DNA of 64,000 bases from Candidatus Aenigmatarchaeota archaeon (lineage in GTDB: Archaea > Aenigmatarchaeota > Aenigmatarchaeia > CG10238-14 > SCSR01). Below, in pieces: positions 17,474 through 57,825 of the stretch (positions are counted from its first letter, which is position 1; each line of letters begins with the position of its first letter). The stretch lies in NCBI GenBank assembly GCA_038998335.1, contig JAVZHQ010000001.1:224001-288000 (forward strand), written 5' to 3'. Position numbers and translations under genes: made by a program. The notes under the pieces were generated by a model. The model had not been told where the DNA came from. It was given only the letters and a program-made list of their open reading frames with translations, and ran no database searches.

Positions 17474-17490
17474 AAATAAATTATTAGAAA

Positions 17491-17576
17491 GCCCTGGTAG
17501 CTCAGTTGGTTAGAGCGCATAGTTTAGCGTAAGCTTGGTAAGCATGAGGTCCCGGGTTCAAGTCCCGGCCAGGGCT
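17491..17576 (+). tRNA. tRNA-Thr(GGT) with 12-nt intron at position 29/30 (17521-17532)
   Basis: Acceptor GCCCTGG/CCAGGGC; D arm GCTC/GAGC; removing AGTTTAGCGTAA restores CATGC-TTGGTAA-GCATG. Confidence 0.9.
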
Positions 17577-17688
17577 TTACGGCACAACCACAAATCCCTT
17601 ACCAATAAAAAGGGATATAACTAGTCAACAAAAGGGAAAGGCAAATTGCAGAAAAATTCTACGAGTAGTTTTGACGGTAATTATCATG

Positions 17689-57225: not shown

Positions 57226-57370
57226 CGCCGAGGCTGGGATTTGAACCCAGAAGGGGCAAAGCCCCACCAGCTTTCTCAACTCACCTCCGACTCATCATTA
57301 GTCAGAGTCAAGCCATTTTATCATTGAAAGACTCAAGGCTGGCGCGTTAGCCAGGTTCCGCCACCTCGGC
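57226..57370 (-). tRNA. tRNA-Ser(TGA) with 59-nt intron at 37/38 (57273-57331)
   Basis: Acceptor GCCGAGG/CCTCGGC with G73; CCAGC-CTTGAG|A-GCTGG; variable arm GGGGC-TTT-GCCCC; GTTCAAATC. Confidence 0.93.
57273..57331 (-). ncRNA. putative box C/D guide sRNA encoded by the tRNA-Ser intron
   Basis: C (ATGATAA) - 12 nt - D' (CTGA) - 3 nt - C' (ATGATGA) - 12 nt - D (TTGA). Confidence 0.7.
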
Positions 57371-57399
57371 TTCCTCATCTTTATTCAGACCTTGAGTCT
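57371..57399 (-). ncRNA. putative D'/C' box guide in the pre-tRNA-Ser 5' leader, targeting U34
   Basis: AGACTCAAGGT-CTGA-ATAAAG-ATGAGGA; the guide is complementary to GCCTTGAG|TCT of the same pre-tRNA. Confidence 0.7.
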
Positions 57400-57465
57400 A
57401 ATTAAAATATGAGTTTTAATTTTAAAATATTAGAACTTAAAAATTAAATTTATCAAATTAATTTT

Positions 57466-57825
57466 ATGAGTGCTGCTTTACAAGCTTTAAGTATATTACT
57501 TTTGTTTCTTGGAGAAGCTTTAGCGATTTATTCTGAGATTGCTGGCGCAAACAAAGTTTTGAATGAGAATAAAATATCAAGCGAAACATTCCTTTGGTTT
57601 TTTCTTTTGATAACTATCGCAGGATTACCTTTAATAGCTGGTTATTTTTTGGGAATAATTGCTTTTAAAAACATTTGGATAGTAAGCGTAGTTTCAATAG
57701 TTTCTATTTTGATAGTAGAACCAATTTTAGCCTATTTAATTTTTAAACAATTCCCAACTTATGGAGCGTTAATTGGTTTAATTCTAGGTTCAGTTGGTTT
57801 GATTATAACCTTAGTTGTAAAGTAG
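57466..57825 (+). CDS. small 4-TM membrane protein
   Basis: Four hydrophobic helices. Confidence 0.65.
   Translation: MSAALQALSILLLFLGEALAIYSEIAGANKVLNENKISSETFLWFFLLITIAGLPLIAGYFLGIIAFKNIWIVSVVSIVSILIVEPILAYLIFKQFPTYGALIGLILGSVGLIITLVVK

Follow-up and report, generated by a model that had tools for sequence, protein, structure and literature searches.

A box C'/D'-type guide predicted in the 5' leader of an archaeal pre-tRNA-Ser(UGA), complementary to the anticodon loop of the same precursor

Can a tRNA gene carry, ahead of its first nucleotide, the instruction for modifying its own anticodon? In a 64,000-nucleotide stretch of DNA from a Candidatus Aenigmatarchaeota archaeon (assembly GCA_038998335.1, contig JAVZHQ010000001.1, positions 224,001 to 288,000; hereafter the window), the gene for tRNA-Ser(UGA), single in this genome, is preceded by a leader in which an antisense guide, a CUGA box and a C'-like box stand directly before the tRNA. 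We find that this leader is very probably a functional element made of an antisense stretch and a K-loop, and conservation in relatives suggests that it probably directs 2'-O-methylation of U34 (Um34) in tRNA-Ser(UGA). The explanation that fits best overall, and which we consider likely, is a hemi box C'/D' guide at the 5' end of the pre-tRNA for methylation of U34. Such an element had been proposed by a model that saw the letters of the window alone (the sequence-only reading), and its coordinates and description of the guide, the CUGA, the C' box and the intron target all hold on the minus strand. The genome comprises 1.0 Mb in 9 contigs and belongs to DPANN archaea of an Aenigmatarchaeota-like phylum; the DNA sequencing runs that contain the locus are hot-spring metagenomes, and a search of sequencing runs listed no RNA run that contains it. 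The parts of the locus are as follows, each with the evidence that places it.

57421..57428, minus strand: TATA/box A-like element AUUUUAAA of the predicted pre-tRNA promoter, in the region upstream of tRNA-Ser(UGA) (sequence and spacing in orthologous leaders)
57389..57399, minus strand: guide AGACUCAAGGU, antisense to nucleotides (nt) 30-37 and intron bases 1-3 of its own pre-tRNA (11-bp duplex and covariation)
57385..57388, minus strand: box D' (CUGA) of the leader module (sequence; base 1 pairs with C' position 6)
57380..57384, minus strand: K-loop spacer AUAAA of the leader module (sequence; 3-8 nt in relatives)
57372..57379, minus strand: box C' (G-AUGAGGA), GAUGAGGA, of the leader module (sequence and box covariation)
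57332..57370, minus strand: tRNA-Ser(UGA) 5' exon, nt 1-37 (Rfam, ARAGORN, register script)
57273..57331, minus strand: tRNA-Ser(UGA) intron, 59 nt, at 37/38 (Rfam snoPyro_CD match, 16S complementarity, conservation)
57226..57272, minus strand: tRNA-Ser(UGA) 3' exon, nt 38-73 (Rfam, ARAGORN)

Rfam calls a tRNA at 57226-57370 on the minus strand (42.3 bits, gathering score 29). ARAGORN misses the gene at default settings; with introns allowed it returns Ser(tga) with i(38,59), a 59-nt intron after nt 37. A cloverleaf with a long variable arm, the anticodon UGA and an intron at 37/38 identify the gene as tRNA-Ser(UGA).

The 29 nt 5' of G1 (57370) consist of the 11-nt guide, CUGA, AUAAA, GAUGAGGA and an A at 57371. 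The guide is composed of AGACUCAAGG (57399-57390) and a U at 57389, and AGACUCAAGG is the exact reverse complement of CCUUGAG (57338-57332, nt 31-37) followed by UCU (57331-57329, intron bases 1-3). The whole target stretch, from G30 at 57339 to intron base 3, covers 57339-57329, with U34 at 57335. A script that tried every register reproduced the 11-bp duplex of the sequence-only reading, with ten Watson-Crick pairs and a G30-U57389 wobble, and placed U34 opposite the fifth guide base upstream of CUGA, as had been claimed. The exact 10-mer AGACUCAAGG is found twice in the window when both strands are searched, once as the guide itself and once as the complement of the target; the expected occurrence of a specific 10-mer within ~60 nt is ~6e-5, by arithmetic with uniform bases. 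Given its conservation and covariation in relatives, described below, the leader match is judged to be more than chance.

Compared with a canonical C/D small RNA (sRNA), the leader contains a C'/D' K-loop, CUGA-AUAAA-GAUGAGGA, for which sheared G-A geometry would be expected, and a guide of ~10-12 nt directly 5' of D' with nt 34 opposite base 5. No terminal RUGAUGA C box lies in the 30 nt upstream of the guide, here or in most relatives. As in known self-guides, nt 34 of the guide's own precursor is the predicted target; the guide sits in the leader and not inside the intron. A CUGA follows G73 in the trailer of this genome and is not conserved in relatives. We rejected a terminal C/D K-turn between the leader's GAUGAGGA and this trailer CUGA, which is present only in this genome and in G001.

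How widely is the module shared? A similarity search of 61 related genomes returned 23 tRNA-Ser(UGA) loci, one of them (L006) mis-called by ARAGORN and recognised on inspection. The module is present in 14/23, with the consensus NNN-CUCAAG(G/C)-U-(C/U/A)UGA, 3-8 nt, GAUGANNN; the nine loci without it are G004, which belongs to the same genus, six loci of family f4, and L019 and L025. This tRNA-similarity set is free of the bias that comes with a fixed pattern. A strict pattern found the module at tRNA-Ser(UGA) genes in 31/371 genomes of the phylum and 21/170 genera, distributed over the families as 20/69 (f1), 3/3 (f2), 1/1 (f3), 0/23 (f4) and 0/19 (f5), and the reversed control pattern gave 1 match. 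Thirty distinct sites were examined: 28 at tRNA-Ser(UGA) genes, one chance match in coding-like DNA (L185), and one second copy in G020, which carries two leader modules in tandem. A wider pattern scan of contigs matched at least 120 stretches; among the matches listed, most are bacterial chance hits, five are archaeal tRNA-Ser(UGA) leaders, and the named metagenome-assembled genomes with the same leader are Candidatus Aenigmatarchaeota.

As the anticodon loop does not vary, information comes from the guide bases that face the intron and nt 31. Among 28 distinct modules, guide position 9 forms a standard pair with intron base 1 in 27/28 (A-U 17, G-C 4, U-A 4, G-U 2), position 10 with intron base 2 in 21/28 and position 11 with intron base 3 in 11/28, and guide position 2 pairs with nt 31 in all 28 (G-C 26, C-G 2, the latter in L028 and L166). 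The guide and intron triplets change together, from AGA/UCU in this genome to AAG/CUU (L007), GGA/UCC (L010), AGU/ACU (L011) and GGC/GCC (L029). Since both G-C and U-A are seen at the first intron pair, each in three families or more, compensation must have arisen several times independently. Of the 84 cells in the three pairs that face the intron, 59 are paired; shuffling the partners gives 46.0 +/- 2.8, and none of 5000 shuffles reaches 59. The MAFFT alignment A1, built from 23 sequences of the leader type, has 94.1% paired cells; in it, 4 of 11 pairs have changed on both sides, 13 cells have changed on both sides versus 3.5 expected, and the covariation score is 0.179 versus 0.074 (0/500 shuffles), with all slid controls lower. 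Covariation of leader and intron in relatives was the check that the sequence-only reading had itself named; carried out here, it came out positive, with four pair types at intron base 1 and a swap from G-C to C-G at nt 31.

The boxes covary as well. In a C/D K-turn, base 1 of the D box forms a Watson-Crick pair with base 6 of the C box, and D base 2 faces C base 5. Base 1 of D' and base 6 of C', a pairing that the search pattern did not fix, are paired in 26/26 true modules (C-G 21, A-U 3, U-A 2), and the sole non-pair is the false positive L185. CUGA and AUGAGGA, taken for D- and C'-type boxes from the letters alone, thus covary as the second stem of a K-turn. Modules that lie in introns of other tRNAs in this genome follow the same box pattern: UUGA goes with ..AA., AUGA with ..AU. 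and UAGA with ..UA.

Is tRNA-Ser(UGA) the only such case in its genome (G000)? Five further tRNA genes, given by position on contig C1, carry a similar module.

569471-569588: tRNA-Leu(CAA), single-K-loop guide in the intron, nt 34 at position 5
663523-663634: tRNA-Trp(CCA), single-K-loop guide in the intron, nt 34 at position 5
785187-785307, complementary strand: tRNA-Leu(UAA), single-K-loop guide in the intron, nt 34 at position 5
405024-405132: elongator tRNA-Met(CAU), single-K-loop guide in the intron, nt 34 at position 5
556995-557113, complementary strand: tRNA-Gln(UUG), single-K-loop guide in the intron, nt 34 at position 5

The five intron modules consist of a guide, D', a loop of 3-6 nt and GAUGA (AAUGA in tRNA-Met), with duplexes of 8-10 bp. 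Together with the Ser(UGA) leader, nt 34 lies at guide position 5 in 6/6 tRNAs. When 38 tRNA genes and their 100-nt flanks were scanned automatically, three duplexes of at least 8 bp turned up beside a K-loop, all in register 5, and no duplex of that length at any other register; tRNA-Met, tRNA-Leu(UAA) and tRNA-Gln(UUG) were treated by hand, as ARAGORN mis-placed six anticodons in the scan, and it labels three of the five intron-module tRNAs wrongly as Ser or Leu. Four of the five intron-module targets coincide with position-34 targets of Pyrococcus C/D sRNAs (PMC7994747), and U34 of tRNA-Gln is a target of a Pyrobaculum sRNA (PMC6009581). By its sequence, the Ser(UGA) leader module belongs, in this genome, to a predicted family of wobble guides that target their own precursor, and is the only member outside an intron. 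A generic genome-wide scan for a K-loop with an 8-nt complement within 250 nt returned 26/608 candidates, mostly AT-rich chance, and was not discriminating.

Beside this family stand two other tRNAs. The intron of tRNA-Cys(GCA) (C1:371540-371646) contains the K-loop UUGA-UAAAA-GAUGAAA, and its upstream guide GUUGGUCU complements the 3' splice junction and nt 38-43; position 5 falls at ~C39 by eye, which recalls Um39 of tRNA-Trp. A 16-bp 'duplex' in tRNA-Cys was dropped as a palindrome pairing with itself. The 53-nt intron of tRNA-Ser(CGA) (C1:504696-504833, complementary strand) resembles a full C/D sRNA, with AUGAGGA, CUGA, AUGAUGA and CUGA; this gene has no leader module, and its intron guides lack a convincing match in ribosomal RNA (rRNA).

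Where would the transcript begin? No TTTAWA other than TTTAAA at 57426-57421 occurs within 70 nt upstream of the guide. In 13/23 orthologous leaders TTTAWA begins 25-35 nt upstream of guide base 8, in seven of them at exactly -30, five of these seven coming from one genus. The upstream neighbour is a divergent open reading frame starting at 57466, and the tRNA promoter must therefore fall within 57371-57465. The sequence-only reading had taken TTTAAA as a promoter that sets the start near the beginning of the guide; the spacing agrees with this, and the start itself would follow from it. Box A lies ~26-27 nt upstream of the transcription start in Nanoarchaeum equitans (PMC3491384), and this spacing would put the start of pre-tRNA-Ser(UGA) at guide base 9 or 10, about the second or third base of the guide, and this fits the weak covariation at guide base 11. 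In four sequencing runs, contigs from related organisms resemble the locus from ~57398 in the downstream direction and part from it upstream of that point; two of the four runs are labelled metatranscriptomic and flagged as probably DNA, and are silent on transcript ends.

The genome encodes Nop5 (PF01798, 230 bits) and fibrillarin (PF01269, 282 bits) adjacent to each other in an operon at C1:769150-770470, L7Ae (PF01248, 109 bits) at C1:789289-789564, and RNase P RNA. The genome thus has both the machinery for guided methylation and the enzyme for leader removal. We propose that the primary transcript of the tRNA-Ser(UGA) gene would start at the first base of the hemi guide or no more than 1-2 nt away from it, and that the antisense element of 9-11 nt, the D' box, the short loop and the C' box would fold into a K-loop. 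L7Ae would bind this K-loop, and Nop5-fibrillarin would be recruited; on the unspliced pre-tRNA, the guide would anneal to the anticodon loop and the beginning of the intron, and U34, facing the fifth guide base counted upstream from D', would be methylated on its ribose. RNase P would then remove the leader and the splicing endonuclease the intron. Methylation on the unspliced precursor appears the likeliest function, since the spliced sequence would lose the three intron pairs. The guide could act on its own molecule (in cis) or, after release by RNase P, on other pre-tRNAs (in trans); the sequence appears compatible with both.

Several observations weigh against a methylation guide of this kind. 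The leader module has one K-turn-type motif only; synthetic hemi-complexes are poorly active or non-specific in vitro, and the bipartite design has been termed absolutely conserved in natural C/D complexes (PMC1635284). In G002 the guide has drifted without compensation and now faces the intron bases with one mismatch and one wobble. G004, a species of this archaeon's genus whose genome is 80% complete, has a degenerate module, and the strict pattern is missing from f4 (0/23) and f5 (0/19), yet the intron sRNA is kept there; a looser pattern revealed no replacement guide in 4/4 f4 genomes searched, and its match in G004 was dropped as an unrelated, probably coding stretch. Seven guide-target pairs without variation (guide positions 1 and 3-8), like the TGA of D' and the C' core GAUGA, were set by the strict pattern itself, and the sequences counted are related, not independent samples. 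The order of processing in Methanopyrus kandleri, with 5' processing before modification and splicing (PMC3695527), would disfavour a strict cis mode and favour trans action by the released leader. Since G004, f4 and f5 lack the module and retain the intron, it is dispensable in some lineages. Loss of the complementarity in relatives that keep the intron is what the sequence-only reading had said would count against it: this is the situation in G004, f4 and f5. In the relatives that carry the module, its guide covaries with the intron.

Could the same element work in trans? RNase P would free the ~29-nt leader as a minimal guide ribonucleoprotein (RNP) for other end-matured, intron-containing pre-tRNA-Ser, and the leader position would then mean co-expression only. 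The M. kandleri order points in this direction, and for the tRNA-Trp intron guide an initial proposal of cis action was followed by a report of action in trans (PMC7994747, PMC11408192). RNase P RNA is encoded here, and cleavage would leave the module intact because the C' box ends 1 nt before G1. Against this, a 29-nt RNA with a single K-loop and without a terminal stem may be unstable, and the minimum-free-energy fold of the whole precursor (-64.8 kcal/mol, z = -2.99) already holds the intramolecular helix between leader and anticodon loop. We regard a trans-acting leader of this kind as possible, if on the unlikely side.

Quite improbable, in our view, is a structural or timing device without methyl transfer, in which the helix and the L7Ae-bound K-loop mask the anticodon loop and 5' splice site, or chaperone the order of folding and processing. 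The helix covers the 5' splice site and would have to open before the bulge-helix-bulge forms, and hemi-complexes lose specificity in vitro (PMC1635284). The precursor also has two competing folds, the centroid lying nearer the cloverleaf than the minimum-free-energy fold. Masking leaves unexplained, however, why nt 34 lies at guide position 5 in 6/6 tRNA families and at no other register, and why the targeted tRNAs match the known Nm34 target set (2'-O-methylated nucleotide 34); moreover, the module is also found on an intron-less tRNA (G011), which has no splice site to mask. That the element has no function, whether as the decaying relic of a C/D sRNA gene once located upstream or as a random match in AT-rich DNA, is highly improbable: a second antisense stretch in L007 and L011 and a C-box-like AUGAUAGA in L010 hint at an ancestral complete sRNA, and the module is lost in G004, but guide and boxes show compensatory changes across at least 21 genera, this genome has ten perfect pairs and one wobble, and the reversed pattern matched once versus 31 genomes.

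Does the guide for U34 need the leader, or the intron? In G061 and G192 the module resides in an intron within the 5' strand of the anticodon stem of tRNA-Ser(UGA), in G228 it lies in a D-loop intron, and in G011 tRNA-Ser(UGA) lacks an intron, nt 38-39 taking its place as pairing partners of the guide. The module would thus work from several positions. Dependence on the intron, as implied by the sequence-only reading, is not universal, as G011 demonstrates. From these arrangements we tentatively suggest, giving it somewhat less than an even chance, that single-K-loop hemi guides form a modular, position-independent self-modification system in Aenigmatarchaeota-like DPANN, in which a 25-30-nt cassette placed in the leader or in 37/38, 30/31 or D-loop introns would write Nm34 on at least six tRNAs. 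Duplicative insertion may be how the cassette moves: in five genera it is flanked by copies of the acceptor 5' strand.

These copies repeat the 5' acceptor strand of the tRNA that they accompany, as GCCGAGG or GCCGGG according to its variant, and lie 2-10 nt upstream of the leader guide in L028, L166, L168, L171 and L172 (G013, G011, G033, G020 and G143, five genera). They could be an insertion trace resembling a target-site duplication, or an alternative partner for the 3' acceptor strand. In L007 (G043) and L011 (G038), the stretch that follows C' (GCACCAGCUUU or GCACUGGCUUU) complements the final bases of the intron together with nt 38-45 and covaries with them; it resembles a second guide, recalling the tRNA-Trp intron with its two guides. 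AUGAUAGA of L010 lies upstream, and together with this second antisense stretch it may hint at an ancestral complete sRNA. The tRNA-Ser(UGA) genes of L168, L171, L179 and L182 have up to three or four introns (8/9, 30/31, 37/38, T-loop). A trailer UCCUUGCUAAACUUUAUAUGCUUUUCGCUUUC is conserved 3' of tRNA-Ser(UGA) in L003, L004, L021, L110, L172 and others, from several genera, and is not found in this genome.

The intron of tRNA-Ser(UGA) contains a second set of boxes and guides.

57324-57318, minus strand: C box AUGAUAA
57317-57306, minus strand: D' guide
57305-57302, minus strand: D' box CUGA
57298-57292, minus strand: C' box AUGAUGA
57291-57280, minus strand: D guide GGAGGUGA
57279-57276, minus strand: D box UUGA

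Two departures from the usual boxes, an A in the C box and a U in the D box, would compensate each other. Rfam snoPyro_CD matches the intron over its full length with 21.9 bits (E 0.066), below the gathering score of 45. The D' guide forms 9 Watson-Crick bp with GUCAAGCCA of 16S rRNA, in the context CACACCGCCC-GUCAAGCCA at the decoding-centre top of helix 44, and its position 5 falls on what we take to be A1408 (E. coli numbering). The D guide GGAGGUGA forms 8 bp with the anti-Shine-Dalgarno stretch at the 16S 3' terminus, UCACCUCC; in several further genera this duplex reaches 10 bp. Conservation of both guides extends across families, those without the leader module among them. By its sequence, the intron is a complete box C/D sRNA, predicted to be aimed at 16S rRNA and not at its host tRNA; no tRNA intron hosting an rRNA-directed guide was found in the literature searched. 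The intron's own D' guide can also form 7 bp, three of which are G-U, with the stretch from U33 to intron base 2, nt 34 then lying at position 4; we judge this incidental. Is the guide for U34 in the leader because the intron is full? Genera with introns of only 10-14 nt also keep the leader module (L012, L021, L028, L029, L045, L099, L110), and its location is therefore not simply a response to a full intron. Elsewhere in the window, ARAGORN calls a tRNA with a 4-base anticodon (ttag) at 17490-17577 on the plus strand.

What would follow if these predictions are correct? Precursor-embedded guides have so far appeared in print only in tRNA introns, of tRNA-Trp and possibly of tRNA-Met in Nanoarchaeum. 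A guide in the leader would make the self-guiding principle independent of the intron and would give the archaeal tRNA leader a role beyond that of RNase P substrate, and Um34 in tRNA-Ser(UGA) would be a new modification. A natural single-motif guide would bear on whether the two-motif symmetry of the C/D RNP is mechanistically required, and the arrangement suggests a route by which genome-reduced archaea may keep wobble methylation without separate guide genes. Should the modular hemi-guide system be real, natural C/D RNPs would need no bipartite RNA architecture, which is thought to be universal, and a tRNA gene could carry a modification instruction outside both its mature sequence and its introns.

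How does the leader guide relate to known systems? In work attributed to Joardar et al. in 2011, the guide of haloarchaeal sR-tMet reportedly pairs across the exon-intron junction, so that the intron is needed, and sR-tMet is said to be a separate gene that acts in trans with full C/D architecture. As a separate guide for Cm34 of elongator pre-tRNA-Met (PMC4033218), sR-tMet shares with the leader guide a wobble-base target; unlike it, the leader guide is not a separate gene. In the open full-text literature searched, we found no guide in a tRNA 5' leader and no natural single-motif wobble guide, in line with the statement of the sequence-only reading that it knew of no leader-encoded self-guide. 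From its sequence, we view the leader-borne single-K-loop guide as a probable variation on the known C/D guide embedded in pre-tRNA, new in its leader location and its single K-loop.

The closest relative is the intron guide of pre-tRNA-Trp, known from Haloferax volcanii and, as sR50, from Pyrococcus (PMC7994747, PMC4033218, PMC11408192). In both cases the guide is part of the targeted pre-tRNA, and both share nt 34 selected by the N+5 rule, L7Ae/Nop5/fibrillarin and an unspliced precursor, features that are predicted here. Unlike the Trp guide, which lies in the intron and is bipartite, with C/D and C'/D' motifs and two guides (C34 and U39), the Ser guide lies in the 5' leader and has a single C'/D' K-loop with one guide; its host is tRNA-Ser(UGA), with Um34 predicted, and the Ser intron holds a separate complete sRNA predicted to be directed at 16S rRNA. 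The RNA in the elongator tRNA-Met intron of N. equitans (Randau 2012, PMC3491384) is likewise a C/D-like RNA embedded in a DPANN pre-tRNA, with a single box pair, and is stable in that organism. It is intronic, however, and N. equitans has neither RNase P nor tRNA leaders. Dicistronic tRNA-C/D sRNA transcripts (N. equitans tRNA-Val, Ignicoccus tRNA-Ser, Thermoproteus tRNA-Pro, plant tRNA-snoRNA; PMC7994747) resemble the leader guide in their co-transcription and in that processing of the tRNA end defines one end of the guide, but these sRNAs lie downstream, are complete and are not reported to target the co-transcribed tRNA. Like the leader module, the synthetic hemi box C/D RNP has one box motif and one guide (PMC1635284). 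That complex is engineered and non-specific, whereas the guide predicted in the leader is natural, conserved and held in a fixed N+5 register.

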